From contig CBDUXP010000001.1 of the NCBI GenBank assembly GCA_965371225.1, positions 146,111 through 210,110 on the forward strand: 64,000 bases of DNA, written 5' to 3'. The stretch is from an uncultured bacterium (lineage in GTDB: Bacteria > Abyssobacteria > SURF-5 > CBDUXP01). The notes beneath the pieces were generated by a model that worked only from the letters and a program-made list of their open reading frames with translations, was not told where the DNA came from and searched no databases. Positions 16,740 through 62,682 of this stretch are shown here, one piece after another (position 1 is the stretch's first letter; every line of letters starts with the position of its first letter). Made by a program: the position numbers and the translations under genes.

Positions 16740-16743
16740 GACC

Positions 16744-42874: not shown

Positions 42875-42875
42875 G

Positions 42876-43745: not shown

Positions 43746-44023
43746 GCGGGCGCGCCCGTGCGGTCAATCGCGTCGACGATCCCGGCGATTACACAGTGGA
43801 CAGGCGATTGCGCGTCTCCGACCACCTGACGGGCGGCGTTCCCCTCGGGCACGATCAGCACGAGGTCCCCCTCGCCGGCCTGCACGGAATCCACCGCGAG
43901 CATGGTCTGGCCATCCGCCCGTCCGTCGGCGTCCAGCGGTTGCACCACCATTATCTTGTGGCCGCGGTAAATGGGATGCTTCACCGTGCTCTGCACGTTC
44001 CCGACGACGGTGGCGAGCTTCAC
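43742..44023 (-). CDS. BMC-P vertex protein (EutN/CcmL/PduN family)
   Basis: VKLATVVGNVQSTVKHP…GHKIMVVQPLD…VDSVQAGEGDLVLIV is a typical pentamer signature. GTG start overlaps the upstream stop (GTGA). Stop overlaps the aldolase ATG (ATGA). Confidence 0.65.
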   Translation of the reverse strand: MKLATVVGNVQSTVKHPIYRGHKIMVVQPLDADGRADGQTMLAVDSVQAGEGDLVLIVPEGNAARQVVGDAQSPVHCVIAGIVDAIDRTGAPA

Positions 44024-44307
44024 GGGGCGGCCTCCACCGGCATGGCGTAGAGCGAGTCGACGATGCCGACGATGCCCGAGTCCACCGGCACGAACCACTC
44101 GGGCAGCGCGTAACACGCTTCGCGCCCGTGGCAGAGCATCACGAGATCGCCCGGCCCGCTCTGCTCGGCCCCGTCGGGTACCACGATGGGTTCGCCCTTG
44201 GCGTGCCGCTCGTGATCCACCGGCTGCACGACCAGCAGCTTCACGCCGGCCAGCCCCGGCGTCTTACGCGAGGCGACGACGCGCCCGATGACTTGCGCGA
44301 GATGCAT
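44020..44307 (-). CDS. BMC-P vertex protein (EutN/CcmL/PduN family)
   Basis: MHLAQVIGRVVASRKTPGLAGVKLLVVQPVD…GPGDLVMLCHG. ATG 44307 lies just after the ALDH stop (44310). Confidence 0.65.
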   Translation of the reverse strand: MHLAQVIGRVVASRKTPGLAGVKLLVVQPVDHERHAKGEPIVVPDGAEQSGPGDLVMLCHGREACYALPEWFVPVDSGIVGIVDSLYAMPVEAAP

Positions 44308-44309
44308 GG

Positions 44310-45749: not shown

Positions 45750-45759
45750 CTCTCAGCCC

Positions 45760-46074
45760 TCACACTCCGGCGGGTTCCGCCGCCGGATATTTCTCGAACA
45801 CCACCTCGCCGTCCAGGTCCCACGTGTCCACGATGGCCATGATGACCGCATCCACGGGCCGCGCATCGGTGAGGTCCGTCTGCCGCGCGGCCGAGCCGGT
45901 GGCGTACAACACCACTTCCCCAACGCCGGCACCGACGGCATCGACCGCCACGTGATATCCGTCTGCGGCCTGCGCGCGCACATCCAGGTTGCGCACGAGC
46001 AGTAATTTCAAGTCGAGGAGCCGCTCATCCTTGCGCGTGGCAACGACGGTGCCCTCGACGCGCCCAAACAGCAC
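45760..46074 (-). CDS. BMC-P vertex protein (EutN/CcmL/PduN family)
   Basis: MLFGRVEGTVVATRKDERLLDLKLLLV…VGAGVGEVVLYATGSAARQ. Confidence 0.65.
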   Translation of the reverse strand: MLFGRVEGTVVATRKDERLLDLKLLLVRNLDVRAQAADGYHVAVDAVGAGVGEVVLYATGSAARQTDLTDARPVDAVIMAIVDTWDLDGEVVFEKYPAAEPAGV

Positions 46075-46095
46075 GGTCGAGTCCTCGCGCCCGGC

Positions 46096-46404
46096 CTACG
46101 CGGCCGGCAGCGCGGCGGTCGCCGTGGGCCCGCGCCCGAGCGGCAGCCGCTCGTCGACATTCTCGTGGGGCCGCGGGATCACGTGGACGCTCACCAGCTC
46201 GCCGACCTTTTCGGCCGCGCGGCTGCCCGCCTCGGTGGCCGCTTTCACGGCAGCCACGTCGCCCCGGACCACCGCGGTGACGTATCCCCCGCCGATTTTC
46301 TCGTAGCCCACGAGTTCGACCCGCGCGGCTTTCGCCATGGCGTCCGAGGCTTCGACCATACCGACGAAGCCGCGGGTTTCGATCATGCCCAATGCATCTG
46401 ACAT
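46096..46404 (-). CDS. BMC-H hexameric shell protein (PduA/EutM/CcmK-like)
   Basis: [56 protein letters not shown] is the canonical BMC domain. RBS GGAGGAG. Confidence 0.85.
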
Positions 46405-46583
46405 CTCATTACTCCTCCGCTGCAGGCGCCGCGGTTGTTAAGACCGGAATATGCAATGTGCGCCCGGTCGAGAAAAATCCCTGCGAGATCCTAGGGGCGA
46501 ATCGTGTATTCACCCATCGGGTGCGGGCGATCACAAGGATCGCCCCTACGGGAGAGAGGTGGGACATTGCACAGCCGTTCTCA

Positions 46584-47231
46584 CTAATTTGCGGCCGCTT
46601 CCCGGGCCTCTTCACCAAACGGAATACCTTCCACGCGTTCAAGCGCTGCGACGGCCGCTTCCGCCGCGGAGTCGATCTCCGCTTCGCCGCCGGACATGTG
46701 CAGCCGGCCGTACGCGCCATACGGGCGGACTTCCACCAGCTTCACGTCCGCCGCCTTCTCCGCCTCGTTCGCGGCGTACACCGCGTAGCCCGCGGGCTCC
46801 GTCTCCAGAATGAACAGGGATTCTCCCGGCAGGATCATCGACCCGTTGCGGTTCCGGTTGATGAGCTGGCATTGGTAGGGCTCGACGGCGCGGATGATCG
46901 TGTTCGAGACGATGTTCGGCTTCAGCCGGTCGGTCTCTTGCAGGCCGATGTGCCCGAGCACGGCGCGGCCCGCGCTGCGCACCTCGCCCTTGTCCATGTC
47001 GTGCACCTCGAGCAACCCGAACGCGCGTTCCACGATCTGAATGGCCGGCTGACAGGTGGTGGCCTTCAGCGCCACGTCGAGGACCCGATTGATCGCCAAG
47101 CCCGGGGCAATCTCCACGAACAGGGACCCCACGCCGGGGACCGGCAGGAAGCCCCGGGCCGTCGCCCCCATGAACGACGCCAACTGCGGCTGCAGGCTGT
47201 CCAGGAAGATGTAGGTGCGGAGCGTAGTCAT
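46584..47231 (-). CDS. BMC-T shell protein (tandem BMC domains), paralog of 42236..42874
   Basis: Same two-repeat architecture (…[23 protein letters not shown]…, …[55 protein letters not shown]…). Start taken at MTTLRTY (ATG 47231). Confidence 0.5.
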
Positions 47232-47241
47232 GCCGGGGGCC

Positions 47242-48120
47242 TCAATACTGTTTGCGCACAATCGCGTCTTCGATCTTCTTCTGGTTGCGGTACATGCGCT
47301 GGGGATTGCGCATGCCCAGCAGGACGAAGAGCGCGTCGATGATGGCGGCCTGGGCCAGCCGGCTCGCCAGCGCCTCGGCCCGGTACCGGGTTTCGCTGGA
47401 CGCCGTGACCAGCACCACGTCGCTCACCTTCGTGATGGGCGAGAGTGAGTTGTTGGTGATGGCGATCACCCGCGCCCCGGCCTGCGCCGCGACGCGAATC
47501 GTGTCGATGGGATCCGTGGTGCTGCCACTGTGCGACACGGCCAGGACCACGTCGCCCTTCCCCAGCAGGGCGGCCTCCATCATCTGCAGGTGGCTGTCCG
47601 TCTGGACGCGCACCGGCAGCCCGAGGCGCAGCAGCTTGTTATACGTGTCCGTGACCACGGGGCCCGAGGTGCCCACGCCAATGACGACGATGGTCCGGGC
47701 ACGGAACAGCAAATCCACCGCCCGCTCCACGGCGGCGGGATCTAGCACGTCCAGCGTGTCTTGAAGCGTCTGGATGTTCAGGCCGAACACCTTGCGCACC
47801 ACCGTGGACGTGTCGTCCGACGCTTTCACGTCTTCCAGCAGGCTCTGCAGGGGCGTCAGCCGGTCCCGCGCCAGCGCGATCTTGAACTCCTGGAAGCCCG
47901 AATAGCCCAGGGTGCGGCAGAAGCGCATGACGGTGGCCTCGCTAACGCTGCTGCCGGCCGCCACCTCGTTGATCGCCTGCCCCAGCAGCGCCTCCGGCTC
48001 GGCGGCCACATAGGCGCCGACTTTCCGCTCGGCCTTGGACAGACTGGCCTGGGCGCCGCGCACGCGGGCCAGGCAACCGCTGCCCAGGGGACCGGCGGTA
48101 CGCGCCTGGGTCTTAGCCAT
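47242..48120 (-). CDS. RpiR/MurR-family transcriptional regulator (HTH_6 + SIS domain)
   Basis: N-terminal HTH (…[54 protein letters not shown]…) and SIS domain (…[14 protein letters not shown]…[12 protein letters not shown]…). ATG 48120 with GAGGA 8 nt upstream. Confidence 0.7.
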
Positions 48121-48171
48121 GGGACCGTTCCTCCACAGCCCCACCCTAGCAAGCGTGGGCGGCCAGGTCAA

Positions 48172-48225
48172 GAGTTTTACGTTATTTTACTAAAAAAAAT
48201 GTAGTAAAACGTTATTTTTCCACCA
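48172..48225. promoter_or_regulatory. AT-rich divergent intergenic region with 8-bp inverted repeat (TTTTACTA-N9-TAGTAAAA) and 10-bp direct repeat (ACGTTATTTT); candidate operator/promoter between RpiR regulator and ABM gene
   Basis: Read directly. Arms at 48185-48192 and 48202-48209. Direct repeats at 48179-48188 and 48209-48218. Strongly AT-rich island in a GC-rich context. Confidence 0.4.
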
Positions 48226-49558: not shown

Positions 49559-50296
49559 GGGGTGTATCTTGTGTGCTTGGCGGGCTTGGCGGTCACGCTC
49601 AACCGCAACCTGCTTCCCACGTGGGTGCGGCCGGAGTTCTACGCCCTGGAGGAGACCCTCAATGCGGCCCACCCGTGGCTCGCCATCCCGCGCCCGCACC
49701 GCTCGCCGTTCGTGTCCACGCGCGTCGCCATCACGGGGCACTCCTGTCTCGTCGTCGGCGATTCGCAGGCGATCAAGTGGCCCTGGTGCGCGGACGTGCT
49801 GGGCTTTGCCGGCGGCAACGCCATGCAGATCTTCCGGCGGATGCGCGTGGAGTTGGAGCACCGCCAACCGCAGTACGCCCAGATCGTGGTCATGGTCGGC
49901 ACGGCCCACTTTCAGGGCGGCGCCAACGTGCGCACGTACGTCGACGGTGTGGCCAAGATGGTCGCCTTGGGCCGGGAGAGCGGTGCGGAGGTTTTCGTGG
50001 TGACTCCGATGCCGTATGACGAACGCCAGATCGAGCGCTTCCTGGCCGCGCATCCGCACATCCAGGGGAAAGGGATGCGGCGCGACACCCTCGCCCACAC
50101 GACGGAAGCTGCCGCGGCCTTGCGCCTGCGCCTGCCCGACGTGGTGATGTTCGACTTAGGACAATTTCACGCCATGCTGACGGGGAGCGGCCGGCGGGAG
50201 GCCTTGTACGTGGATGGGCTCCATCTCACCCCCGAGGGCTGGTCGCTCTTGGCCGATGAGCTCGCCGCGGCCGGGATTCAAGTGACGGACTTCTAA
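49526..50296 (+). CDS. SGNH/GDSL-like hydrolase (copy 2 of tandem pair)
   Basis: Paralog of 48693..49454 (LVVGDSQ, …DGLHLTPEGW…). The first 11 codons and 13 nt of leader are identical to copy 1. Confidence 0.5.
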   Translation: MRRPLTFREMLGVYLVCLAGLAVTLNRNLLPTWVRPEFYALEETLNAAHPWLAIPRPHRSPFVSTRVAITGHSCLVVGDSQAIKWPWCADVLGFAGGNAMQIFRRMRVELEHRQPQYAQIVVMVGTAHFQGGANVRTYVDGVAKMVALGRESGAEVFVVTPMPYDERQIERFLAAHPHIQGKGMRRDTLAHTTEAAAALRLRLPDVVMFDLGQFHAMLTGSGRREALYVDGLHLTPEGWSLLADELAAAGIQVTDF

Positions 50297-50353
50297 TCCC
50301 TACCCCGCCGATCGAGATCCGGTCCACGCGTCGGTCCGCCCCGCGTACAGGGC

Positions 50354-51172
50354 TCAGCGTGCAGTTGGCGGCGTTCCCAACGTGCGGAGAAAACGGAGGT
50401 GGCCGGGCGGTGCCTCGCCCGCCAAGGCGGCTTCGTAGCGCTCCAGGTCTTGGACCGTGTCCACTTCGCACCAGTCGCCGGAAATCGGCACGGCGGACGG
50501 CGCCACACCCGCCGCGATCATGCCCTGGAGCAGGTCCGTCATGTACGCGGCGCGGAGGGACGGCACCCCGGCGAACGCCTCCGCCCCCGCGGCCTCGCGC
50601 TGCGCCGCCTCGTCGTACACTCGGCGCAGCGAGGCCAGGCCGTCCGTGGTGAAGCGCATGAGGCCGATGTATTGCCCCTGGATCTCGGCGAGGCTGCCGG
50701 GGCGCTGCCCGATTTCCGTGAGGTGGCCGTCGGCGTCCACCCGCAAGCTCTCCGCATCCTCCAGCGGATCGTCATGCCGGAAGCGCCACAGCGTCTCCCA
50801 CGCGCGGTCCACCGCCACCGCGCAGGCCGCCTCCGCCGCCAGGACGCGGCGCACCACCTGGCCGCTATACACGATGTCCGTATACGCGACCAGGGTGGGT
50901 TCGGTGAACTCGTGCGCCGCGCAGAAGAGCGAGTGCACCATGTTCGTGGTGGCGTACTCCGGATTGTGAACCCGCCGGGTACCGTAGGCGGCCAGGGCCT
51001 CGGCCCGGTAGCCGGTGACTACCACGATGTCGTCCACGCCCGCCGCGTGTAGTACCTCGAGTTGCCACGCGAGCAACGGGCGCCCCGCCAGCGGCACGAG
51101 GCACTTCGGCCGGTCGTCCGTGTGGGGTCGCAGGCGCGTGCCCTGCCCCGCGGCCAGCAGGATCGCCTTCAC
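50354..51172 (-). CDS. Nucleotidyltransferase (LicC/CTP:phospho-substrate cytidylyltransferase-like)
   Basis: VKAILLAAGQGTRLRPHTDDRPKCLVPLAGRPLL is the GxGTRL nucleotide-binding signature. C-terminal …ISGDWCEVDTVQDLERYE… GTG start overlaps the upstream stop (GTGA). Confidence 0.65.
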   Translation of the reverse strand: MKAILLAAGQGTRLRPHTDDRPKCLVPLAGRPLLAWQLEVLHAAGVDDIVVVTGYRAEALAAYGTRRVHNPEYATTNMVHSLFCAAHEFTEPTLVAYTDIVYSGQVVRRVLAAEAACAVAVDRAWETLWRFRHDDPLEDAESLRVDADGHLTEIGQRPGSLAEIQGQYIGLMRFTTDGLASLRRVYDEAAQREAAGAEAFAGVPSLRAAYMTDLLQGMIAAGVAPSAVPISGDWCEVDTVQDLERYEAALAGEAPPGHLRFLRTLGTPPTAR

Positions 51173-51873
51173 GATGCGTGCGCGCGCAGGGCATCGAGCA
51201 ACCGCTGCCAGAATGCGCCGGCATGGATGCGCGCCGCGCCGTCCGTGGGCATGGGACGTTCCGGATGCCACATGATGCCAGCGATGGGGGCGCTGCGGTG
51301 CACGCAGGCTTCCACGCTCCCGTCCGGCGCGAACGCGGTGGGCTCCAGGTCCACGGCAATGTCTTCCGGCCGGATCCAGCGGTCATGATAGGAATTGACG
51401 GACACGGTTGGCTCGGGCCACACCCCCGCCAGGGCCGCGCCGGTGAACTGCACGTCGTGGCACGTGCCCCGGTGCGCCTGCACGTCCGGCACCGGCGCAT
51501 CCGCGCCGCCGAACGCCTGGTTCAGGAACTGGAAGCCGCGACACACGCCGACCACGGGGATGCCCGCCTCCCGCGCCGCGCGCAGGTAGGCTAGTTCCGC
51601 ATAGTCGCGCCGCGCCCAGGGATCCTCGGACTCCTGCACGGGAGTGTCCGGACCGATGGGCGCGCGGAGGTCATCGCCACCGGTCAGCACGAGCAGATCG
51701 AGGTTGCTGCGGTGCAGGCGGTCGGCGGCCGCAAGCGGCGCGTTGGGCAGGAGCACGGCCTCGGCCCCGCACGCGTCGAGCGTCCGGGACCAGTCGTGGC
51801 TGATCGCATCCCGCGGGTCGCTGTAGTCCGCGCTGGCGACATCCATCACCCGCATGGTCAGCCCAATCCGCAT
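51169..51873 (-). CDS. Peptidase C26 / class-I glutamine-amidotransferase-like hydrolase (γ-glutamyl hydrolase type)
   Basis: Catalytic Cys context GVCRGFQFLNQAFGG and His context MWHPERP. ATG 51873 overlaps the upstream stop (TGATG). Only the 3' 705 nt of six-frame ORF 51169..52527 is used. Confidence 0.6.
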   Translation of the reverse strand: MRIGLTMRVMDVASADYSDPRDAISHDWSRTLDACGAEAVLLPNAPLAAADRLHRSNLDLLVLTGGDDLRAPIGPDTPVQESEDPWARRDYAELAYLRAAREAGIPVVGVCRGFQFLNQAFGGADAPVPDVQAHRGTCHDVQFTGAALAGVWPEPTVSVNSYHDRWIRPEDIAVDLEPTAFAPDGSVEACVHRSAPIAGIMWHPERPMPTDGAARIHAGAFWQRLLDALRAHAS

Positions 51874-54800
51874 CACACGCCCGCCACGGTGCGATTCCCG
51901 CAATCCAGTTCGATGGCGGACGCGCGGCGCAGGTCGGCATAGAGCGCCGCCCCGCACCCGATGGCCGCGGGGAGCCCGAACTCCGCCGACCGGATCGCCA
52001 TGTGGGAATTGGCGCCCCCGTACTGCGTAATCAGGCCGGCGATGTCCCGGGTGAAAATCCAGTCGAAGCCCGGGTCCGCAAAGGAGAGCAACACGATCTT
52101 TCCGGACAGGTCGCCCGCTGCCGCGTCCCCTTCGAGCACTGCGGGCGGCGCCAACACGCGGCGCGTGGTGATGAAATTGGGCCGACTGTGAATCTGTTCG
52201 ACGATTTCCAGATCCCGCGCGGCGGTAATCAGGCCGGGCATGATCAGCATCTGCTCCAGCCGGTACTGCTCCCGCGCCGCGGCGATCTCGGCGCGCGCCG
52301 CGTCCACCCGGGCGGGCGACGCCGCTTCCCGGCTCAGCCGGAGCAGGGTGCCGTAGGACAGGAACGACAGATCGTCCCGCGTCAGCCCCACCGTCTCGCC
52401 CCAGCGGGCGATGCACTCGAGGGCGGCGCTGAGGTTCACGGTGAAGCGAAACTTCGCCGCTTCGCGCGCGGCCACCGTCGCGGCGACGAACCGGAGCACC
52501 GCATCCGCGGAGGCGCACAGCCCGCACGCTTCCAGGGCCTGCGTCATCGCACCGCGTTCACCTTCGGAGAATTCGCCCAGCAGGTCCCCCGCGTCCGCGG
52601 GCGCCTGTGCCGGCGCCTGGGCGGTGGGCGACGCCGCGGCAGGGAAATACCGGTCGGGCGCCGCATCGTAGCGGGGGGAGAGGATGTCGTAGGTGCCGGG
52701 GCGGAGGTGCCCGTACATTTCGAGAAACGAGTCAAGGCTCGTGCGACTTTCACGCACGCCGGTCAGCGCAGCCATGAGGTCGGACGCCACCGTTGGAATG
52801 TGTTGGTGCACGCTATCCAGTTGCCGCGGTGTGAGGAGCCCTTCCGCCGCCAGCCCCCGCAACAGGGCGGACCCGACGAACGCCATGCGCGCCAGCATGC
52901 TGAACGGCAGGGTGCCGCACGTGCGCGCGTCTTCCAGCATCCGCTGCATCGCACTCAGCGGCACGGTCTCGCCCAGTGCGTGGTGCTGCGCCCGGCGCGC
53001 CGTCAACCGGTCGACCTGCTCCAGCAGGCCGGCGACGGTCGGCCCTTCACCCTGCAACATCCGATTGGTCAGCGGCAGGAGCGCGGCGCGGAGCGCGGCA
53101 ATGTCGCCGTCGACCACCCCGTGTTCGCGGAGCCGACCGGCGTGGCGGTCGAAGTCCGGGGTGGTGCACGTGACGGCGATTTCGAACTCCAATTTGTCGT
53201 GGGCCGCCGGTTCGGCCTCGAGCGCGTCCAGGTACGCCGTCACGATGCGGTCCCGCACGTCGGGCGCGAGGGCCGCCGGGGTCAAGCTGTTCAGGCTGTT
53301 GCGCACGTCGATGTACGGGTGTCCGCCCACGAGCAACATCAGGGGCTCGCCTTCGGGGTGGAAGTAGCCCAGGGCCGCGCGCGCGTCCCGCCACGTGTGA
53401 TTCGTGATCAGGTCGGCGTACAGCGTGTGCGCCAACGGGCGGGGATGCGCGCCGAGCATCTCGGCCGGATTCCAGTCCGGCATGTCGCCCAGAATCGTGC
53501 GGTCGCCCCCCAGCGGCGGGCGGGGGCCGAGCTGCGCCTCCACGAACGCGCGATTGGCCTCCACCAGCGGCGTGACGTCGTTCAGGTAGTAGCGCGACAC
53601 CACTTCGGTGATCGCCAGCGGGCGCGCCTGGAAGAGCACGACCTCGCCCGACGCGCGCACGGCGTACTCCACGTCGACCGTTTCGCTTCCGGTGCGCGCT
53701 TCGACCTCCTGGACCGCGGCGACCACACGCGCCAGCTCCGGTGCGCCCGGGGATTCGCGCGTGTGCTTCCACAGGGCGACGGTTTCCAGGTCGGTGGCGC
53801 TGCCGCTGGTGACGCCGTCCGTGCGGCTGGACCGCTCGTGGGTGAGCACGTAGTAGGGGCCGCCCGTGCGCAGGTCGCAGGACACCGCCACCCCGCTCAG
53901 CACTGCATCGTCCAGCCAGGGCTGCACCAGCACGCGATGATCCGCGCGGGTGTCGCCGTAGCTGTCCAGCACCGCGTCCACTGCCGCGGCCACGGCGGGC
54001 TGATCCACCACCGCCACACCGAGCACGGAGTGGTACACCCCGGCGTTCGAACTATCGAGCGCGTCCTCGTCGGGCGCCGAGCTGCGCACGACGATCTGCC
54101 CCTGGGGAAACGCCTCGCGGATGCGCGCGTACGCCGCCGCCGGCTCCTCCGCCCACTCCCGGGCATCCACTGTCACCTGATCGAGGACGCGCGCCGTCTG
54201 CAAGACCGGCTGGAGGCGCTCGAGAGTCTCCGCCTTGGTGCCGAACACGAACCGGGTCAGGTCCTGCGGCGAGTCCAGGTCCGCCCATGCGTTGCCGATG
54301 TCGACCGCGTGCACTCGGTCGCCGCGGTCGATCAACGCTTGCAACAGGTCGATGATGGTCAGGTCCGCCGTGCGGTCCGCGCCGGCCACCCCGAGGGCCG
54401 CACCGCCGCCCAGGTCGGCTAGTTGGCGCACGGCCGCGGTCTGGGGCGGGGCGAGGTACAGGAGACCGGTGAACTCTCCGTGCGCTTCGGCGCCGGGCAG
54501 GTCGCGGGCGATGCGCCGCACGGTGCCGTCGGGGGCCACCTCCACCTTCTCGGCCTTGCGTTGGAGCGCGTCGCTGCGATCGAGGTACCGCACCTGCCAC
54601 TGCCGGTCGATCGCGACGACGAGGCCGTGCGCCGCCGCATCCAGCACCACGCCGACGGCTTCCGGCCGGTAGACCGTATCGCAGTAAGTCACGAGCACGG
54701 GCCCGTCCACGTCCGCGGTTCCCACGAGGAGCGAGCCCACCATGCCCGACGTGGCCCAGTGGGGATTAAACCGGAATTGCACGGCGGGATACCGCGCGCT

Positions 54801-54977
54801 CAACACATCGATGTCCTTCCCGCCGACGACCACCACGTCCTCGATGCCGTTGCGCCGTAGCGCGTCGAGAAGCCACGGCAGCGTCGCGTCCATGCGGCCG
54901 TGGAGGGAGGACGCCGCGCGCAGGTAAGGGGGCTGCACGGATTCCAAACCGCGCGCGGCCAACAGGACGGCTCGCAC
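51873..54977 (-). CDS. PEP-synthase/PPDK-like ATP-dependent kinase (PPDK_N ATP-grasp-like domain + PEP-utilising phosphohistidine domain) with N-terminal degenerate nucleotidyltransferase-like domain
   Basis: Middle region VVRSSAPDEDALDSSNAGVYHSV (PPDK_N hallmark). C-terminus …GGANSHMAIRSAEFGLPAAIGCG (phospho-His mobile domain). N-terminal ~250 aa resemble an NTP-transferase fold (MRAVLLAARGLES…) but lack GxGTRL. Confidence 0.6.
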   Translation of the reverse strand: MRAVLLAARGLESVQPPYLRAASSLHGRMDATLPWLLDALRRNGIEDVVVVGGKDIDVLSARYPAVQFRFNPHWATSGMVGSLLVGTADVDGPVLVTYCDTVYRPEAVGVVLDAAAHGLVVAIDRQWQVRYLDRSDALQRKAEKVEVAPDGTVRRIARDLPGAEAHGEFTGLLYLAPPQTAAVRQLADLGGGAALGVAGADRTADLTIIDLLQALIDRGDRVHAVDIGNAWADLDSPQDLTRFVFGTKAETLERLQPVLQTARVLDQVTVDAREWAEEPAAAYARIREAFPQGQIVVRSSAPDEDALDSSNAGVYHSVLGVAVVDQPAVAAAVDAVLDSYGDTRADHRVLVQPWLDDAVLSGVAVSCDLRTGGPYYVLTHERSSRTDGVTSGSATDLETVALWKHTRESPGAPELARVVAAVQEVEARTGSETVDVEYAVRASGEVVLFQARPLAITEVVSRYYLNDVTPLVEANRAFVEAQLGPRPPLGGDRTILGDMPDWNPAEMLGAHPRPLAHTLYADLITNHTWRDARAALGYFHPEGEPLMLLVGGHPYIDVRNSLNSLTPAALAPDVRDRIVTAYLDALEAEPAAHDKLEFEIAVTCTTPDFDRHAGRLREHGVVDGDIAALRAALLPLTNRMLQGEGPTVAGLLEQVDRLTARRAQHHALGETVPLSAMQRMLEDARTCGTLPFSMLARMAFVGSALLRGLAAEGLLTPRQLDSVHQHIPTVASDLMAALTGVRESRTSLDSFLEMYGHLRPGTYDILSPRYDAAPDRYFPAAASPTAQAPAQAPADAGDLLGEFSEGERGAMTQALEACGLCASADAVLRFVAATVAAREAAKFRFTVNLSAALECIARWGETVGLTRDDLSFLSYGTLLRLSREAASPARVDAARAEIAAAREQYRLEQMLIMPGLITAARDLEIVEQIHSRPNFITTRRVLAPPAVLEGDAAAGDLSGKIVLLSFADPGFDWIFTRDIAGLITQYGGANSHMAIRSAEFGLPAAIGCGAALYADLRRASAIELDCGNRTVAGV

Positions 54978-54999
54978 TCAGTGCCCGGCCCCGGCCGCC

Positions 55000-55812
55000 C
55001 TAGATGCTCGCCGCCGGCCCCGGGGGCAGCGCTGCGACGATGAAGGTGCGATTCCGGTCGAGAAAGGTGCCATAGTCGAGGACCGTTTCTTCCTGCAGGG
55101 TGAACAGGTCCGCAATGATATCCCGGACCACGGGCAACTGCGCCCCTTCGTGCTCGGGCGGATGGGATTCGAACAGGAACAGGCCGCCGGGTTCCAGCAG
55201 CGCGCGACATTTGCCGAAGTACTCTTCGAGCGGTTGACGCGTATTGCCGTCATAGGTCGAGTGATTCGCGAATGACAGGACCGCATCGACCGGACACGGC
55301 GGCCGGAACTCCTCGAACGCGCTCACGTGGAACTCCACATTGGCGGCGCCGAGGTAGGCGGCGCCCGCCCGCGCGATGTCGATAAGGTGGGGGTTCACGT
55401 CGAAGCCGATGACGCGGTCGGCCACATCGGCCAGCGCCAAGGTCAGGAACCCGGTGTTGCACCCAATCTCCAACACGGTGCGCCCGGCAAGTCGCTCGCG
55501 CAGGCCCATCATCCGCACGCGCTCATCCGTATCCCGGAGACCGGAAAAGCCGAGCGCGCGCAAGCCCTGGTACAGGTAGCCCTCTCCGTAGTCGTAGCTG
55601 TCCCACTCCCGCGCCGCCTGCAGCAGGGCCGCGTTGCAGTGGCGGTGCAATTCCCGAAGGCGTTCATCCTTCATAAGCAACGTGTAATTGCGCAGGCGGT
55701 TCGACAGAGCCAGGCGCCGGCGCTTTCCCCGCGCGCGGAGCATATGCCAGGTAAACACGAGGGGCGCCACGCCGTGGTACCGGTCGTAATACTTCAGGTA
55801 CGCCTCGCGCAT
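55000..55812 (-). CDS. Class I SAM-dependent methyltransferase
   Basis: Motif I VLEIGCNTGFLTLALA, motif II region VIGFDVNP. Confidence 0.65.
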   Translation of the reverse strand: MREAYLKYYDRYHGVAPLVFTWHMLRARGKRRRLALSNRLRNYTLLMKDERLRELHRHCNAALLQAAREWDSYDYGEGYLYQGLRALGFSGLRDTDERVRMMGLRERLAGRTVLEIGCNTGFLTLALADVADRVIGFDVNPHLIDIARAGAAYLGAANVEFHVSAFEEFRPPCPVDAVLSFANHSTYDGNTRQPLEEYFGKCRALLEPGGLFLFESHPPEHEGAQLPVVRDIIADLFTLQEETVLDYGTFLDRNRTFIVAALPPGPAASI

Positions 55813-55816
55813 AGCG

Positions 55817-56701
55817 CTACTCAGGCCCGCCGGTGAACACGCGCGCGAGCGCCGCGCCGCGCACCGCCTCGTGCATGAAGTGATAGGTCACGCCGGCCTC
55901 GCGATCCTGCGGGGTGGCGGGCCAATCGGCGAGGTCCGGCGCCGCCGCCACCTGCCGGGCCAGCATCTCCGCCCGGAGCACGGGATCGTAGAACGCGAAC
56001 AGCGCCCGATACAGGGTCGGATCGTCCGGCCGCGGCAGCCCGGACAGGTCGAACGCCAGGGATTCCAGCTCGGCCGTGCACACCACGTCCCCCGCATCCA
56101 GTTCGGGAACCATAAAGAACACACTCATACCCGGTCGCCCGCGCACCATGGTAGACCACAACAGGCCGTCCGCGCCGCGCACGTGCGGCAGGTAGCCGGG
56201 ATGCAGGTGGAGGAACCGGAGCCCGGGCGTCGCGAGCAGGGGCGCGGGCAGCAGGCCGCCCCCCGTGTAGAGCACCACCGGCTGCCCCAAGGCCGTCAGC
56301 GCCGGGCCCAACGATTCTGCCCGGTAATCCGCCGCGAGAACTCGCCGCACCTCGTCCGCGAAATCCTCGTAACGCACCGGCCCCCGCAGCGCGGATACTA
56401 CGGCCGCGCTCTCGGGATAGGCCTCCCCAATGGCGCGCTCCATCCGCTCCACCAAGCCCGCGTGAGTCTGCCGAATGCGCCGGGGCCAGAACCAGTGTGC
56501 AAGCGATTGCACGCGCTCGGCGTAGGCGAGCCGGAGCCGGCCGGGGAGCCAGCGGCCGACCGGTTTGCCGGTGGCGGGATGCGTGGGCGCAACCAGGAGC
56601 AGTATGCCGGCAGGCCGGTAGCCGGCGGCACGCAGCCGCAGCAGGTACGCGGCAACCTGCGGCCCTTCGTAGGCCAGCACCGTAAGCGGGAGGGTGTTCA
56701 T
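55817..56701 (-). CDS. Formyltransferase-family (Fmt/PurN N-terminal domain-like) protein
   Basis: …LRFLHLHPGYLPHVRG… resembles the HxSLLPxxRG formyl-transferase motif. ATG 56701 overlaps the upstream stop (ATGA). The upstream ~85 codons of the six-frame ORF are rejected. Confidence 0.4.
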   Translation of the reverse strand: MNTLPLTVLAYEGPQVAAYLLRLRAAGYRPAGILLLVAPTHPATGKPVGRWLPGRLRLAYAERVQSLAHWFWPRRIRQTHAGLVERMERAIGEAYPESAAVVSALRGPVRYEDFADEVRRVLAADYRAESLGPALTALGQPVVLYTGGGLLPAPLLATPGLRFLHLHPGYLPHVRGADGLLWSTMVRGRPGMSVFFMVPELDAGDVVCTAELESLAFDLSGLPRPDDPTLYRALFAFYDPVLRAEMLARQVAAAPDLADWPATPQDREAGVTYHFMHEAVRGAALARVFTGGPE

Positions 56702-57150
56702 CCCGCGGCAATCTCCCCGAGCACCGCATCCGCCTCCGCGCGCAACTCCGCCAGCAGGGGCACGTCTGGCTGCGTAGCAAGGAGGTCCAGCGCCTGGAAC
56801 GCTCCGTTGACCCACTTCAGGGCGGGACCGCGGCGGGCGGGCTCCGCATCGGTCGCCGCACGGCCGTACGCCAGCAGCACGGCGACGCCCAACGCCAACG
56901 CCGCATCGGGAAGCGGCGCCGCGTCGGGGTCTTTGCGCCAATCCGCATCGTAAGCCGTCCACACGCGCTTCGCGATGGCGATCTTGCGGCAGAGGGCGTG
57001 CAGCCAGCCCGCGCGCATCCCGTCGGGCGGGTCCCCGGCGGATTCCGCGAGGTGCCGCAACAGCCCCACCATTTCCTGCTGGGGAATGGGGCCCGGCGCG
57101 GACGCGGGGGGCGCCGCGACCAGCGCGCGGTGCAGCAGGGGGGCAACCAT
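56698..57150 (-). CDS. Hypothetical protein
   Basis: In-operon ORF with no recognisable family. Start chosen at MVAPLLHRAL to avoid a 74-nt overlap with the upstream gene, but it is uncertain. Confidence 0.3.
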   Translation of the reverse strand: MVAPLLHRALVAAPPASAPGPIPQQEMVGLLRHLAESAGDPPDGMRAGWLHALCRKIAIAKRVWTAYDADWRKDPDAAPLPDAALALGVAVLLAYGRAATDAEPARRGPALKWVNGAFQALDLLATQPDVPLLAELRAEADAVLGEIAAG

Positions 57151-57154
57151 CGCG

Positions 57155-58318
57155 TTATCCGGCCGCGGCGCGGCGACCGGCTGCGGCCACGATGTAGTCC
57201 GCGGCGGCGCGACCGCTTTGGCCAACATTAAAGAGCCACCGGTCCCGGGCCGCGCGAATTTCCGGAACCCGCTGCGCCGTGGTCTCCCGCAGTTCGCGGA
57301 CGTGCCTGGCGATGTGCGGAATCTCCGCGGGCGAGATGACGGTGCCGATGGCGGACCGGATCAGGACTTCGAACGGCTCGCACGGGATGGCGTCCGCATT
57401 CGGGTTGTTCACTTTGCGCGCCACGTCGATAAACAGCACGGGGCGTTCGAGCCCGAAGGCGAATTCCGCGGCCACCCCGGACCAGTCACTCACCATCACG
57501 TGGGCCGCAAAGAGCGACTCGGCCGACGCGACGTCCGTCTCCAGCACCACCTGCGGATGATCGCCGAACGCCTCGCGCAGCTTCGCAATCACCTCAGGCC
57601 GCTGGAGCGCGGTCCGCGGATGGGGCCGAATCGTGACGTGGCAGCCGGCGTCCAGCAGCGCGGCGACCGTGTCGTGGCCGTGGGCTTCCAGGATCGCCTC
57701 CGGCCCCCACGTGGGTGCCAGCAACACCCGGGGGGGGCCGTCGTGGGCGGGCGGCGGGCGGCGGGCCCCCTCGCGCATAAGCGAATCCAACCGGCTGTAT
57801 CCGTGCTCGGGCAGCGCGCGGGGCGGCCGGCCATGCGCCTGTTCCAGGGCGCGGGCTTCGGCCACGTGGTGCGGCCCCACGCACAGGATCGCGTCAAAGT
57901 AGTCGAATGCCCGTTCGCGGTAGATCGTGTGCATGCTGACGATGGAGTGGTGGAGGTACACGTAGTGGACCGGATAGTAGCGCGACCGCTTGACGTGAAA
58001 GACTTCCAGGTCGGGCGTGGTGAGGACCATCACATCGCTGCGCAGGGTCCAGAACGCATACGTGCGGACGATACCCCTGCCCACGTAGCAGACGTGCAGG
58101 TGCTCCTCGGTCCGGCGTAGCCCGGGATCGGCCGGGTCCGAGGTCAAGTAGGCGACCGGGCGCTGGTGCTCCACGCGCAGGGCGGTGACCACCGGCTCCA
58201 GGTGGACCCAGGCGGCCGCGTCCTCGGCGTAGAACACGATGGAGCGGGCCGCAGGATCGAGGGCCAGGAACCGCCGCAGCCCGGCGCACGCCCGGGCGAA
58301 GTCTCGGAAACCATGCAT
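57155..58318 (-). CDS. CDP-glycerol glycerophosphotransferase family protein (TagB/TagF-like, Glyphos_transf)
   Basis: C-terminal …FAAHVMVSDWSGVAAEFAFGLERPVLFID… and preceding …LLAPTWGPE… are typical of the TagF-like catalytic domain. First gene of the minus-strand operon. Confidence 0.55.
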   Translation of the reverse strand: MHGFRDFARACAGLRRFLALDPAARSIVFYAEDAAAWVHLEPVVTALRVEHQRPVAYLTSDPADPGLRRTEEHLHVCYVGRGIVRTYAFWTLRSDVMVLTTPDLEVFHVKRSRYYPVHYVYLHHSIVSMHTIYRERAFDYFDAILCVGPHHVAEARALEQAHGRPPRALPEHGYSRLDSLMREGARRPPPAHDGPPRVLLAPTWGPEAILEAHGHDTVAALLDAGCHVTIRPHPRTALQRPEVIAKLREAFGDHPQVVLETDVASAESLFAAHVMVSDWSGVAAEFAFGLERPVLFIDVARKVNNPNADAIPCEPFEVLIRSAIGTVISPAEIPHIARHVRELRETTAQRVPEIRAARDRWLFNVGQSGRAAADYIVAAAGRRAAAG

Positions 58319-58452
58319 CACAACTGTGGTCGGCACTCTGCGCCGCGGGTTGCAACGTGGATCAGCCGGTCATTAGACTATCTCACCTGTGGTGCCGCGC
58401 GCGGTGGTAGGGGGGATGACCGCGCTCGGGGCGATCCCAGGAAGGGGCGGGG

Positions 58453-58704
58453 ATGCGAAAGATGTGTGCAGGCAGGAACAGGCAACCGGGAACCCGCTGG
58501 GATGTGGTCATCATAGCGGGCTGCATCGCCGGCATCGTGTGGCAACCGCCCGCGTACGCTTACCTGGACCCGGGCTCGGCCGGGGTCCTGGGGCAACTGC
58601 TCGTGGCGATCGTGGCGGGGGCCGGCGCGACGATGACGTTCTTCTGGGGCCGGATCAAATCGACCGTCGGCCGCCTGTTCGCGTCCAAATCCGATTCCGA
58701 GTAG
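58453..58704 (+). CDS. Small hypothetical membrane protein (2 TM)
   Basis: 83 aa with two hydrophobic helices. AGGAAGGGG upstream. Immediately precedes the tandem GT-C-like genes. Confidence 0.35.
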   Translation: MRKMCAGRNRQPGTRWDVVIIAGCIAGIVWQPPAYAYLDPGSAGVLGQLLVAIVAGAGATMTFFWGRIKSTVGRLFASKSDSE

Positions 58705-58735
58705 CCCGCGCCGGTCGGGCACTGAGAGCGCCGGC

Positions 58736-60703
58736 GTGGTGCCGCCGGCTTCGCCCGTGAATCCCAAGCCGCGCGTCCCCCTTGACCTGCTGCTGGTCGG
58801 CGGTGCGCTCCTCGCGGTGCATCTGGGGGTGCGCAACCATACGCTGACCCCGCTGAACGGCGGCATCGAGGCGCTCGACGGCGGCTACCTGATGGAGGCG
58901 CTGGCCCGGGTGGCCGGCGGCGAGCGCGCGTATACCCCGGTGGTCTTCCATTACGGACCGTATTGGGTGGGCTATTACGTGGGGATGATGAAGCTCTTCG
59001 GGGTCTCGGTCGGCGGCGTGCGCTGGGGGGTGGCGTTGCTCGCCTGGCTGCGCAGCGTCACGACGTACGCGCTCACCGCCCGCTTGGCCGGCCGCTGGTG
59101 GGGGTTGGTCGCGGTGGCGGTGACCATCGTGTCCCCAAACGTCCTGTTGGGTGCGCCGTACGGGAGCTACACGTCCGGAAGCGTGCTGCTCGTGTTCGCG
59201 GGCGCGGTGCTCTGGGCGCTGGCAGCGGAGGGATCGGCCCGGCGGTGGTTACTGGTCGGCCTGCTGATTGGCGTCATGTTCGGTGCACGGTGGTCCAGTG
59301 CGTTCATTGCGCTGGCGGCGACCGGCATCGTGGGGGGGGCCACGGGCCTCCTGCACCCGCCCGTGCGGCGGGGCCACTTGGTGGGCACGGTGGTGATCCC
59401 CGGCCTGTTGTTGGTCAGCGTGGGCCTGCTGGTCTGGCCCTATGCGCGCGCGTCGTGGATCGCCTTCGGTCCGCCGGCAGTGGGCGCCGCGGTGTTGGCC
59501 GGGGCGGAGAGCTGGCGGCGCCGGGGCACCGGGCCGGCCACCTGGCGCGAATGGCGCGCGGCCCCCGCCTGGTGCGCGGCCGGCATCGGGACGGCGACCC
59601 TGGTCTGGCTCGTGCCCATGACCCTGGCGGGGGATGTGGCCACCCGGGTGCATGACATGTTCCTGCGCTACGCGGCATCCGTCCAAGTGGGCCGCTGGTA
59701 TGCGGTGGAGCAACCCCCCGGGCTCGAGGCGCTCGGGCTCGTGACGCACACCCCCCCCGCACCGCTCATGCTTGCCGGCTGGGGGCTGCTCCTGTTCGGC
59801 TGGGTCGTGCACGCGCGCCGGGGGGATGGAGCGCGGTGGCGCCTGACCTGTCTGGCGTGGGCCGCCGCAGGCGTGATGCTCACCGTGTCCATGGTGCGGG
59901 CACACGCGTTCCAGTCCGCCCGGCTCGGGGATCTCCTGTGGGCGGAACTGCTGGGGCCCGTGTACCTGGTCTGGTGCCTGCACCACGCGTTCCGCGCCGG
60001 CGACGCGCGGCCTCCCTGGCTGGTGCCCCTGGCCTGCCTGGCCGGGGTGACGTTCCTGGACGGCGCGGCCGACGTGAATTGGGTGCATGTGGGTGCGGCG
60101 ACGGGAGTGGCCATCGTGTTTGGCGTCGTCGCGGCCCATCAGGCGTGGCTCGCGGGGCGGACGGCGACGCGGCTCTTGGGCCCGGCCCTGGCCGTGGGGG
60201 TGGCCCCGCTGATCGCCGCGCAATTCCTGCTGGGCGCCGGCCTGTGGTGGACGCTGCCGGGCGATTCGTGGCGGTTTACGCGCCGCGACCTGGCGTGGGT
60301 GGATGTTCCCCGCGGGCAGGTGTGGGAGGACGTCGGCGTGGCGCGCGAGATCCGGGCAAACGTACTGTTCTTGCAGGCCGCCTTGCCGCCGGATGAACCC
60401 TGCTTCTCCTTTCCGGATGCGCTCTACCTCTTTCTCGCCGACCGGCGCGGCACGGCGGACGTGACCTATTTCTGGCCGGGCTATTCGGCGCCCCACATCG
60501 ATGGACACTATGCCTCCTACCTGCGCACCGATCCGCCGCGACTGGTCGTGACCCGCTACAGCCCGCTTGACGTGTTCGGGGGGCCGTTGTACCTGGCCCG
60601 CGGGTTCCCCAAGATTGTCGACACGCTCGATGACGAGTTCCGTGTCGTCCAAGAAATCGGCATCCTGCGCTACTACGCCCCACGCCGGCGCGGCGGCCGG
60701 TAG
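58736..60703 (+). CDS. Polytopic membrane protein, putative GT-C-like glycosyltransferase (paralog A)
   Basis: 655 aa, about 14 TM helices, first-loop acidic motif (GGIEALDGGYLME), C-terminal ~130-aa soluble domain. Confidence 0.4.
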   Translation: MVPPASPVNPKPRVPLDLLLVGGALLAVHLGVRNHTLTPLNGGIEALDGGYLMEALARVAGGERAYTPVVFHYGPYWVGYYVGMMKLFGVSVGGVRWGVALLAWLRSVTTYALTARLAGRWWGLVAVAVTIVSPNVLLGAPYGSYTSGSVLLVFAGAVLWALAAEGSARRWLLVGLLIGVMFGARWSSAFIALAATGIVGGATGLLHPPVRRGHLVGTVVIPGLLLVSVGLLVWPYARASWIAFGPPAVGAAVLAGAESWRRRGTGPATWREWRAAPAWCAAGIGTATLVWLVPMTLAGDVATRVHDMFLRYAASVQVGRWYAVEQPPGLEALGLVTHTPPAPLMLAGWGLLLFGWVVHARRGDGARWRLTCLAWAAAGVMLTVSMVRAHAFQSARLGDLLWAELLGPVYLVWCLHHAFRAGDARPPWLVPLACLAGVTFLDGAADVNWVHVGAATGVAIVFGVVAAHQAWLAGRTATRLLGPALAVGVAPLIAAQFLLGAGLWWTLPGDSWRFTRRDLAWVDVPRGQVWEDVGVAREIRANVLFLQAALPPDEPCFSFPDALYLFLADRRGTADVTYFWPGYSAPHIDGHYASYLRTDPPRLVVTRYSPLDVFGGPLYLARGFPKIVDTLDDEFRVVQEIGILRYYAPRRRGGR

Positions 60704-60708
60704 ACCCG

Positions 60709-62682
60709 GTGCAGCCCACTCCGCCTGTCACCCGTCCCTCGCGCGTGCCCCTCGACCTGTTGGTGGTCGGGGGCGTCTTGCTGGCCGTGCATCTGGCAGT
60801 GCGCAACTACGGGCTCGGCAGCCTGAACGGGGGCACCGAAGCGCTGGACGCGGGGTATCTCATGGATGCGCTCGCGCGCGTGGCCGGCGGGGAGCGCGCC
60901 TACTCCCCCGTGGTCGCCCACTACGGGCCCTACTGGATGGCCTACTTCGTGGGCATCTTGAAACTCTTCGGCGTGTCCCTCGGCGGCGTGCAGTGGGGCG
61001 TGGCCCTGCTGGCGTGGGTGCGCAGCGTCGTGACGTACGCGCTCACGGCCCGCTTGGCCGGACGCCGGTGGGGTCTCGTCGCCGTAGCCGTCACCCTCGT
61101 GTCCCCGGGCTTGCGGTGGGGTATTCCCTATGGCGTGTTCATGTCCGGGGTCGTGTTGCTCCTCTTCGCGGGGGCGGTGCTGTGGACGCTGGCCGCGCCC
61201 GCCAGCGTGCGGCGATGGTTCCTCGTGGGGGTGCTGATCGGCGTACTGGTGGGCACCCGCTGGTCCAGCGCGTTCATTGCGCTCGCCGCGCTCGGCATCG
61301 TCGGTGGCGCCACGGGCCTCCTGCACCCGCCCGTGCGCCGGGGCCATCTGCTCGGCACGGTCGTGATCCCGGCGTTGCTCCTGGTCAGTACGGGCCTGCT
61401 GCTCGGCCCCTACCCCCGCGATTCGTGGGTAGCGTATGCACCCGTCGCGTTGGGAACGGCCGTGCTGGCGGGGGCGGAAAGCTGGCGGCGCCGGGGGACG
61501 GGACCCGCCTCCTGGCGCGCGTGGCTGGCCGCGCCCGCCTGGTGCGTCGCGGGCATCGTCGCGGCCACCCTGGTCTGGCTCGTACCCTTCGTCATCAGCG
61601 GCGACGCCGCCACCCGGGTGCACGACATGTTCTTCCGGTACGCGGAGTCTGTGCAGGTGGGCCGGTGGTACACCCTGACGCTGCCTCCCGCCCTCCGGTT
61701 GCTCGACCACATCGCGCCCCCCGCGCCCGCACCGGTCTTTCTGGTCTGCTGGGGGCTGATCCTGTTGGGGTGGATTGCCCACGCGCGGGCGGGAGCGCCG
61801 GTGCGCTGGCGGGTGACGAGCCTGGCGTTCGGCGCCAGCGGCGTGATCCTGAGTGCGTGGATGCTGCTCGCCAATGCGTTCCTCGCCGCGCGGCTGGGGG
61901 ATTTCATCTGGATCCAGTTGGCGGGAGCCTTCTACCTGATCTGGTGCTTGCACCACGCCCGCCGCTCCCGGCCCGGGGACGAACGGTCGTGGTGGCTCGT
62001 GCCCCTGGCCTGTCTCGCGGGAGTCACGTTTCTGGACGGCGCCGCAGAAGTGAGTTGGATCCACGTGACCTCGGCGACGGCGGTGCTCATCGTCTTCGGC
62101 GTGGTGGCGGCCCGGCAGGCGTGGCTCCACGGGAAGGCACACTCCCGCCTGTTGGGGCCGGCGCTGGTCGGGGCGGTGGTCCCGCTCATCGTGGCGCAAT
62201 GCCTATTGGGCGCCGGGCTGTGGTGGACGCTGCCCTTTGATTCGTGGCAGCTCATTCGCCGGGAGCTGGCGTGGGTGGACGTTCCCCGCGGGCAGGTCTG
62301 GGAAGACGCCGCGACCGCGCGCGAAGTGCAAGCCAACGTGTTGTTCCTGCAAGCGGCGCTGCCCCGGGACGAGCCCTGTTTTGCGTTTCCCGACGCGCTC
62401 TACCTCTTCCTCGCCGACCGGCGCGGGACCGCCGACGTCACCTACTTCCAGCCCGGCTACTCGGCGCCCCACGTGGACGGCCTGTACGCCTCACAACTCC
62501 GCGACGCTCCGCCCGCGCTCGTGGTCGCCCGGTACAGTCCGCTTGATTTCTTCCAGGGCAATCCCCTGTACCTGGCCCAGGGGTTTCCCCAGATCATCGA
62601 TGCGCTCGATGAAGAGTTCCGCGTCGTCCAGGAAATCGGTGTCATGCGTTACTACGCCCCGCGCCAACGCCTTCGCCGCTAA
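60709..62682 (+). CDS. Polytopic membrane protein, putative GT-C-like glycosyltransferase (paralog B)
   Basis: 657 aa, collinear with paralog A at roughly 70-75% identity by eye. Separated by 5 nt. Confidence 0.4.
   Translation: MQPTPPVTRPSRVPLDLLVVGGVLLAVHLAVRNYGLGSLNGGTEALDAGYLMDALARVAGGERAYSPVVAHYGPYWMAYFVGILKLFGVSLGGVQWGVALLAWVRSVVTYALTARLAGRRWGLVAVAVTLVSPGLRWGIPYGVFMSGVVLLLFAGAVLWTLAAPASVRRWFLVGVLIGVLVGTRWSSAFIALAALGIVGGATGLLHPPVRRGHLLGTVVIPALLLVSTGLLLGPYPRDSWVAYAPVALGTAVLAGAESWRRRGTGPASWRAWLAAPAWCVAGIVAATLVWLVPFVISGDAATRVHDMFFRYAESVQVGRWYTLTLPPALRLLDHIAPPAPAPVFLVCWGLILLGWIAHARAGAPVRWRVTSLAFGASGVILSAWMLLANAFLAARLGDFIWIQLAGAFYLIWCLHHARRSRPGDERSWWLVPLACLAGVTFLDGAAEVSWIHVTSATAVLIVFGVVAARQAWLHGKAHSRLLGPALVGAVVPLIVAQCLLGAGLWWTLPFDSWQLIRRELAWVDVPRGQVWEDAATAREVQANVLFLQAALPRDEPCFAFPDALYLFLADRRGTADVTYFQPGYSAPHVDGLYASQLRDAPPALVVARYSPLDFFQGNPLYLAQGFPQIIDALDEEFRVVQEIGVMRYYAPRQRLRR

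Follow-up and report, generated by a model that had tools for sequence, protein, structure and literature searches.

In Campylobacter jejuni, the capsule is decorated with O-methyl phosphoramidate (MeOPN) by a pathway in which Cj1418 is an L-glutamine kinase, Cj1416 a CTP:phosphoglutamine cytidylyltransferase, Cj1417 a gamma-glutamyl-CDP-amidate hydrolase and Cj1415 a cytidine diphosphoramidate 3'-kinase (PMC11800397, PMC6429109). The way in which the phosphoramidate group reaches the sugar has yet to be solved (PMC12409886). MeOPN has been called a Campylobacter-only modification (PMC6429109) and glutamine kinase a C. jejuni-specific enzyme (PMC9561416); in the literature that we searched, the sole mention of a MeOPN-like four-gene cluster elsewhere is in the Borg preprint (10.1101/2024.11.05.622173). 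Phosphorus-nitrogen (P-N) groups on envelope glycans do exist beyond Campylobacter, as indicated by a phosphoramide group on the lipooligosaccharide core of Xanthomonas campestris pv. campestris (Silipo et al. 2005, as cited in PMC8042644). Here we analyze a seven-gene operon in a 64,000-nucleotide stretch of DNA from an uncultured bacterium of the Abyssobacteria (contig CBDUXP010000001.1, positions 146,111 to 210,110; the whole stretch is called the window below), which by sequence resembles the front half of the Campylobacter MeOPN pathway.

The operon spans positions 50354-58336 on the minus strand of the window, which has a G+C content of 66-71%, and consists of seven intact, tightly packed open reading frames (ORFs), called G1 to G7 in order of transcription (Table 1). 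A first-pass annotation made from the sequence alone had proposed seven minus-strand genes of these classes in this order. ORF calls and Pfam profile hidden Markov model (HMM) matches bore this out, with Glyphos_transf in G1, PPDK_N and PEP-utilizers in G5, Peptidase_C26 in G6 and NTP_transf_3 in G7. Its description of overlapping stops and starts is accurate for three of the six junctions, namely G2/G3 (ATGA), G5/G6 (TGATG, 1 nucleotide) and G6/G7 (GTGA); at the remaining junctions the genes are 4, 4 and 22 nucleotides apart, and all six are operon-tight. A promoter and terminator scan of positions 49800-59000 was uninformative, returning no promoter-like site and one terminator-like site, which is below the shuffle mean.

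Like the C. jejuni pathway (Cj1415-Cj1422), the operon combines a kinase, a C26 hydrolase and a nucleotidyltransferase (NT) of the corresponding classes with an S-adenosylmethionine (SAM)-dependent methyltransferase. Unlike that pathway, it has no Cj1415-type kinase and adds a fused pseudo-NT domain, a TagF-like enzyme as candidate transferase and the G2-G3 pair. The MeOPN-like reading of the first-pass annotation is thus supported for the front half, made up of kinase, C26 hydrolase and NT, and fails for the downstream half. Judging from the protein families involved, the seven genes most likely make cytidine diphosphoramidate (CDP-amidate), an activated N-P donor. We estimate a probability of roughly 55% that they form one operon for phosphoramidate-type decoration, in which CDP-amidate would arise by the three Campylobacter steps and then be used by a different transfer route.

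The kinase part of G5 carries the clearest family signature. Residues 239-1032 cover the full length of the NCBIfam model NF004508 with a score of 786 bits (cutoff 501), and we take this family to include Cj1418. The models for PEP synthase, PPDK and rifampin phosphotransferase gave at most 46 bits (cutoffs 456-999), with 45.8 bits for the best PEP synthase model (cutoff 883) and 32 bits for RIF_Ptrans_rph (cutoff 999), so by sequence G5 is neither a PEP synthase nor a rifampin phosphotransferase. It does share its three-domain architecture with those enzymes, and the nearest solved fold in a Foldseek comparison was rifampin phosphotransferase (E 6e-22); at 14-17% identity, however, the resemblance is at the level of the fold alone. 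The PDB copy searched contains no glutamine kinase structure, and a sequence search of it found no relative of Cj1415-Cj1418. The swivel-domain histidine H992, in the motif GGANSHMAIR, is invariant among homologs. Homologs at 37-41% identity bear the JGI product name 'glutamine kinase', including fused proteins of about 1020 amino acids (P0129, P0157). Because this label is assigned by auto-annotation, the breadth of the family is already implicit in the databases.

G5 might instead phosphorylate a substrate other than free L-glutamine, such as another amide or a gamma-glutamyl compound, and so yield a different phospho-amide. Identity to the proteins named glutamine kinase is, after all, only in the range given above, and the extra N-terminal domain and the G2-G3 pair mark a divergence of the pathway. 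We nevertheless consider this distinctly improbable, since NF004508 is covered over its full length and above its cutoff, and since a gamma-glutamyl-type hydrolase with an intact triad has been kept in the operon.

A feature overlooked by the first-pass annotation is the degenerate NT domain fused to the N-terminus of the kinase. Residues 1-238 of G5 adopt an NT fold in the structural model, with Foldseek matches to the cytidylyltransferases 4jd0, 2xme, 1jyk and 6pd1 (target-normalized TM-score, TMt, 0.67-0.74), and share the motifs D..W..W..R...L.DAE and GW.E.D..DL with NTs of the G7 type. Neither the G-x-G-T-R-L loop nor the P-K lysine is present in the domain, which is probably non-catalytic. 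Its sole low-confidence stretch, residues 9-27 (predicted local distance difference test, pLDDT, below 50), corresponds to the lost loop. The GTG start at 54977 is backed by the N-termini of homologs. The public protein P0001 (1006 amino acids) begins 28 codons later (54894-54977), and because the homologs align with the longer form, the deposited gene call is probably too short and cuts into the first beta-strand of the domain. The domain would probably bind phosphoglutamine or CDP-glutamine, or else dock G7 to the kinase.

The C26 and NT proteins complete the set of three. G6 matched Peptidase_C26/GATase at 101 bits, and its top NCBIfam match was NF045546, the gamma-glutamyl-CDP-amidate hydrolase, at 69 bits, under the 250-bit cutoff. 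Its counterparts at four other loci, three of which have an APS (adenosine 5'-phosphosulfate)-kinase-like gene, scored 95-122 bits on the same model and were likewise all under 250. Since counterparts at loci with such a gene also fall short, the model appears to be narrow. In the alignment C111, H203 and E205 are invariant, so that G6 has the Cys/His dyad within an intact Cys/His/Glu triad. None of the sequence traits that the first-pass annotation had named as speaking against its reading is thus seen in the kinase or the C26 protein. G7 matched NTP_transf_3 at 77 bits, and its best PDB match was LicC (1jyk, E 3e-17); its catalytic motifs LLAAGQGTRL and PKCL are intact, and it falls into one BLAST family with the NTs from 68 loci of both layouts described below. 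From family membership, G5 would phosphorylate glutamine on the amide nitrogen, G7 would add CMP from CTP to give CDP-L-glutamine, and G6, through Cys111/His203/Glu205, would remove glutamate to leave CDP-amidate. That a gamma-glutamyl hydrolase is obligatory in the trio indicates an intermediate derived from glutamine.

Relatives of the kinase were found in more than 597 species-representative genomes, a lower bound from scanning a single genome for each species. Their hosts include Actinomycetota, Planctomycetota, Pseudomonadota, Bacteroidota, Spirochaetota, bacteria of the candidate phyla radiation (CPR), Haloferax, Methanosarcinales and DPANN archaea. When an alignment of low-GC kinases was used as the search profile, 3668 protein clusters matched at E < 1e-20, and no Campylobacter protein was among the best 120 of these 3668 matches. 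The first-pass annotation had singled out the non-Campylobacter setting of the operon; given these numbers, that setting is not unusual. We then compared gene order in 80 fetched loci, which were chosen by similarity to the fused query and are related rather than independent events; for this reason we give no weight to the Fisher tests computed on the locus counts. The order kinase, C26, NT is conserved in about 74 of the 80, across many bacterial and archaeal phyla, and the presumed CDP-amidate trio is present in hundreds of species of bacteria and archaea.

Two layouts can be distinguished among these loci. Loci of the Campylobacter-like layout have either a free-standing, unfused kinase (about 790 amino acids) or one joined to an APS-kinase domain (about 970 amino acids; P0040, P0045-P0053, L081). 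An APS-kinase-like gene (NF004041; Cj1415-type) was adjacent or fused in 17 of the 26 unfused-kinase loci and missing from the other 9. In the layout of the window, with the NT domain fused to the kinase, such a gene lay within 8 kb in three of 54 loci (L003, L012, L055), and 51 had none. The window itself contains no APS-kinase-like ORF above 9 bits in six frames by an HMM of 15 locus-linked proteins, and tblastn was also negative, in agreement with the first-pass annotation, which had reported no Cj1415-like kinase in the window. The absence of the Cj1415-type gene is a systematic trait of the fused layout and not a gap of the window.

The TagF-like gene follows the opposite pattern: a homolog of G1 was present in 33 of the 54 fused-kinase loci versus none of the 26 unfused ones, mostly straight after the NT. 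In a rough neighbor-joining tree, most loci with both the fusion and the TagF-like gene fall into one large clade, and other fused lineages, including that of the window, lie elsewhere. Homologs of G1, G2 and G3 together accompany the trio in nine loci (L009, L010, L017, L024, L033, L036, L037, L041, L060) from Planctomycetota, Phycisphaerae, Acidimicrobiia and Solirubrobacterales, and six of the nine also have a methyltransferase of the G4 type. The commonest order is kinase-C26-NT-G1-G2-G3, of which the window is a cyclic permutation.

G1 matched Pfam PF04464 (Glyphos_transf) marginally, at 22.9 bits against a cutoff of 22.1. Comparison of the G1 family profile with the PDB gave TarL (8va1, E 4e-5), TagF (3l7i, E 1.3e-4) and also Cps3D. 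The AlphaFold2 model of G1 (pLDDT 94.7) was consistent with this: its five best Foldseek matches in the PDB were all TagF (3l7j/i/k/m; E 9e-12, TM-score 0.60), and generic GT-B enzymes ranked lower. TagF relatives take a CDP-activated donor (CDP-glycerol, CDP-ribitol), pass on its phospho-alcohol part and release CMP; the catalytic histidines of TagF are His444, the base, and His584, at the donor pyrophosphate. The invariant R237-P-H239 of the G1 family aligns with R-M-H584 of TagF, and S-D-W-S-G with T-D-Y-S-S; an invariant H130 lies in the N-terminal domain of G1, outside the stretch aligned with TagF. The GT-B-like two-domain fold and the R-P-H motif are thus common to G1 and to TagF, TarL and TagF-like capsule polymerases (3l7i, 8va1, 8qoy). 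Unlike those enzymes, G1 is compact (390 amino acids, about 13% identity), lacks the extra domains of the polymerases and belongs to a family that always stands beside a CDP-amidate-type trio rather than tagD or tarIJ. We presume that G1 takes CDP-amidate as donor and makes a single addition rather than a polymer.

We propose that G1 uses plain CDP-amidate because TagF chemistry uses CDP donors and because G1 is found only where the 3'-kinase gene is missing. With CDP-amidate as donor, G1 would place the phosphoramidate on a hydroxyl group of a glycan, probably a lipid-linked one, and release CMP; 3'-phosphorylation of the Cj1415 type would then be dispensable. Alternatively, the pathway could still be of the Campylobacter type, with CDP-amidate phosphorylated at the 3' position by an unlinked CysC-type APS-kinase and the 3'-phospho donor used by G1 or some other enzyme. 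Our view is limited to 64 kb of the genome, and the three exceptional fused loci do have an APS-kinase-like gene nearby, both of which would fit such an arrangement. We think it unlikely, given how unevenly that gene is distributed between the two layouts and given that enzymes of the TagF family take plain CDP donors, as the PDB structure of TagF with CDP-glycerol illustrates.

A teichoic-acid-like addition of a phospho-alcohol (CDP-glycerol, CDP-ribitol or CDP-choline) would also account for G1 and G7. G7 would then be an ordinary LicC/TarI-type enzyme and G1 an ordinary glycerophosphotransferase, and the kinase and C26 protein would have nothing to do with a P-N bond. LicC is indeed the best solved relative of G7, and NCBI names relatives of G1, one of them in a complete Pseudomonas chlororaphis genome, 'CDP-glycerol glycerophosphotransferase family protein'. 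This reading is nonetheless very improbable. The operon has no tagD/tarI/tarJ-type gene and no kinase or dehydrogenase gene for glycerol-3-phosphate, ribitol-5-phosphate or choline; kinase, C26 and NT are kept as a unit in nearly all of the loci; and the nearest named family of the C26 enzyme is a CDP-amidate-forming hydrolase.

The small G2 protein had no Pfam or NCBIfam match. Nine G2 homologs occupy the same position in their loci, and G2 is homologous to a protein of about 200 amino acids that precedes the formyltransferase-like gene in Campylobacter-like loci (hhalign probability 90%, E 1.4e-6). G3 gave a partial Pfam match to Formyl_trans_N (PF00551; 30.4 bits, cutoff 26.1), and its family profile matched Fmt in the PDB (4iqf, E 1.6e-11) as well as sugar N-formyltransferases and PseJ. 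Homologs of G3 were found in 37 of the 80 loci, in both layouts. We treated G2-G3 as one unit because the two genes are adjacent in both layouts, homologous across the layouts and fused in L009 into a single ORF of 457 amino acids.

Residues H165, H167, G169, P172, G176, D202, G204 and R243 were invariant in 26 G3-family sequences. G3 shares its core fold and the signature H...P..RG...D.G with N10-formyltetrahydrofolate-dependent formyltransferases (Fmt, PurN, the N-domain of ArnA, sugar N-formyltransferases, PseJ). Unlike them, it has H-x-H in place of N-x-H: the catalytic Asn is replaced by His (H165-x-H167) in all 26 family members, with the Asp (D202) kept. It also has no C-terminal domain of the Fmt type and is always paired with or fused to G2. 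No counterpart of the pair is described in the MeOPN literature that we examined, a comparison by descriptions rather than by Campylobacter sequences. The unit may alter an intermediate or product of the pathway, and the simplest guess is N-formylation of the P-NH2 group, because nucleotide-linked amines are the substrates of formyltransferases. G4 is a class I SAM methyltransferase (Methyltransf_25/31/11/12/23 in Pfam) for which no specific NCBIfam model matched; it has homologs in 15 of the 80 loci, and other loci have different SAM methyltransferases. In the proposed pathway, it would methylate the phosphoramidate group.

Taken more broadly, these findings would fit a second widespread route of phosphoramidate transfer, in which a TagF-like enzyme acts on plain CDP-amidate with no 3'-phospho donor and the G2-G3 unit N-formylates or acylates the P-NH2 group. 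This generalization is possible, if doubtful. The N-acyl phosphoramidate would be either the final decoration or a transient protection like that provided by ArnA/ArnD in the 4-amino-4-deoxy-L-arabinose (Ara4N) pathway. If the generalization is true, P-N envelope glycans would be no Campylobacter speciality but a common feature of Actinomycetota, Planctomycetota, Pseudomonas and many other lineages. We know of no genetic basis for the Xanthomonas phosphoramide. A large subset of the carriers of the trio appears to have swapped the 3'-kinase step for a different gene set built around the TagF-like enzyme. This makes G1, predicted to be a soluble GT-B enzyme with CDP-amidate as its donor, an assayable candidate for the missing transfer step, and tractable cultured carriers are available, for example P. 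chlororaphis CP027744.1. The prediction is that environmental bacterial envelopes carry unrecognized phosphoramidate decorations, with relevance to phage receptors, immunity and glycan chemistry.

As with MeOPN in C. jejuni, the cassette of other carriers lies within surface-polysaccharide loci, in nonulosonic-acid/capsule and O-antigen-type gene sets (e.g., L082), and further neighbors include epimerases, DegT, UGDH, amidotransferases and acetyltransferases. It is unlikely, in our view, that CDP-amidate or a derivative is made for a target other than a surface polysaccharide, such as a lipid head group, lipid A/core, a protein or a small-molecule phosphoramidate natural product. In its favor, the cassette of the window lies outside any set of glycan genes and its neighbors are unconserved; the stand-alone operon of P. 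chlororaphis, with its sulfatase-family membrane protein and YidC-like protein, recalls systems that modify envelope lipids or act in the periplasm; and the kinase occurs by itself in some Streptomyces genomes (L054). Against such targets stand the many carriers with the cassette inside O-antigen or capsule-type clusters and the fact that TagF relatives work on lipid-linked glycopolymers.

Several points weigh against the assignment of the operon to phosphoramidate decoration of a glycan. Every functional step is one that we infer from sequence, and the likeness to Cj1416-Cj1418 is indirect, by way of NCBIfam models and JGI names. The score of G6 is far under its equivalog cutoff (69 versus 250 bits). 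The Pfam match of G1 is marginal, and a GT-B fold does not fix the identity of the donor. An unlinked CysC-type kinase could supply the 3'-phosphorylation. Within the fetched flanks, the TagF-like gene was not seen in 21 of the 54 fused loci, and the locus counts are phylogenetically non-independent. When neighbors were compared across loci, no conserved glycan-synthesis gene was found beside the cassette in the window. Finally, loci of both layouts have sulfatase-family proteins as neighbors, and at some of them such a protein could be the enzyme that actually performs the last transfer.

Table 1. Coordinates of the operon and of other features in the window.
Feature	Position	Strand	Length	Description
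G1	57155-58336 (database start: ATG at 58318)	-	387-393 aa	TagF-like (GT-B fold) CDP-dependent phosphotransferase, candidate phosphoramidate transferase
G2	56698-57150	-	150 aa	Small helical protein, partner of G3
G3	55817-56701	-	294 aa	Formyltransferase-fold protein
G4	55000-55812	-	270 aa	Class I SAM-dependent methyltransferase
G5	51873-54977	-	1034 aa	L-glutamine-kinase-family enzyme with fused N-terminal NT-fold domain
G5 N-terminal domain	54264-54977	-	residues 1-238	Degenerate paralog of the pathway nucleotidyltransferase
G5 kinase part	51873-54263	-	residues 239-1034	ATP-grasp, central helical and phosphohistidine swivel domains
G6	51169-51873	-	234 aa	C26/GATase1 hydrolase, candidate gamma-glutamyl-CDP-amidate hydrolase
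G7	50354-51172	-	272 aa	LicC-like nucleotidyltransferase, candidate CTP:phosphoglutamine cytidylyltransferase
Exopolysaccharide (EPS) cluster	146-18720			Bac_transf priming enzyme, Poly_export, Wzz-like, GT4 enzymes, two FemAB-like Acetyltransf_6 proteins
EPS polymerase	7989-9842			Wzy_C
EPS flippase	13408-14829			
Tandem membrane proteins	58736-60703, 60709-62682	+	~655 aa	Two paralogs, 72% identical; first with weak PMT_2 match (GT-C glycosyltransferase)
Microcompartment-like set	42236-48186			Resembles the Planctomycetes-Verrucomicrobia type
Class II aldolase	42876-43763			
Aldehyde dehydrogenase	44310-45752			
Bacterial microcompartment (BMC) shell protein	46584-47423			
RpiR/SIS regulator	47242-48186			

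A complete-looking Wzx/Wzy-type EPS cluster is present in the window. The first-pass annotation had placed it within 30 kb of the operon and taken it as the supplier of an acceptor glycan. The cluster is real, but it lies about 31.6 kb away, the region between it and the operon is unrelated, and no conserved synteny ties the two together. Upstream of the operon and divergently oriented are the two tandem membrane proteins, which we considered as acceptor machinery and rejected, as none of the other loci has a homolog of them near its cassette. On the downstream side lie an SGNH hydrolase, the RpiR regulator and the microcompartment-like set. Taken with the best matches of the cassette (L009, L037), this last set is a hint of an origin in Planctomycetota.

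P. chlororaphis CP027744.1 (about 35.5-46.6 kb; L085 3376-14461) is a cultured, fully sequenced carrier in which the cassette stands alone. It comprises genes for a sulfatase-family membrane protein, the fused kinase, C26, NT, a TagF-like protein, an 80-amino-acid ORF, a YidC-like protein and a 456-amino-acid protein, the last of which is probably a G2-G3 fusion. Proteins of the sulfatase/alkaline-phosphatase superfamily, about 590-610 amino acids in length, also recur by Campylobacter-like APS-kinase loci (L028 6352-8175, L057 5201-6958, L034, L067) and could be phospho-group transferases of the system.

Next to the APS-kinase-fused operon of L081 is a 433-amino-acid protein with a weak Sulfotransfer_3 match (15148-16449, minus strand). 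A protein of this kind would fit a 3'-phospho-CDP-amidate donor, by analogy with 3'-phosphoadenosine 5'-phosphosulfate (PAPS). A homolog was found in one other locus only (L076, about 4227, minus strand), and a transferase of sulfotransferase fold was dropped as a rule for Campylobacter-like loci.

Two loci binned with giant viruses in IMG/VR, L086 (5284-9030; GVMAG-M-3300024261-33) and L087 (5200-8670; GVMAG-M-3300009496-9), have a C26 gene and, after it, an NT-kinase region; an NT gene of its own is missing from both. Their NT part is nearer to the catalytic G7 type (35% identity, 157-184 bits) than to the degenerate domain of the fused kinases. These loci could be contamination or a real viral module for glycan decoration.

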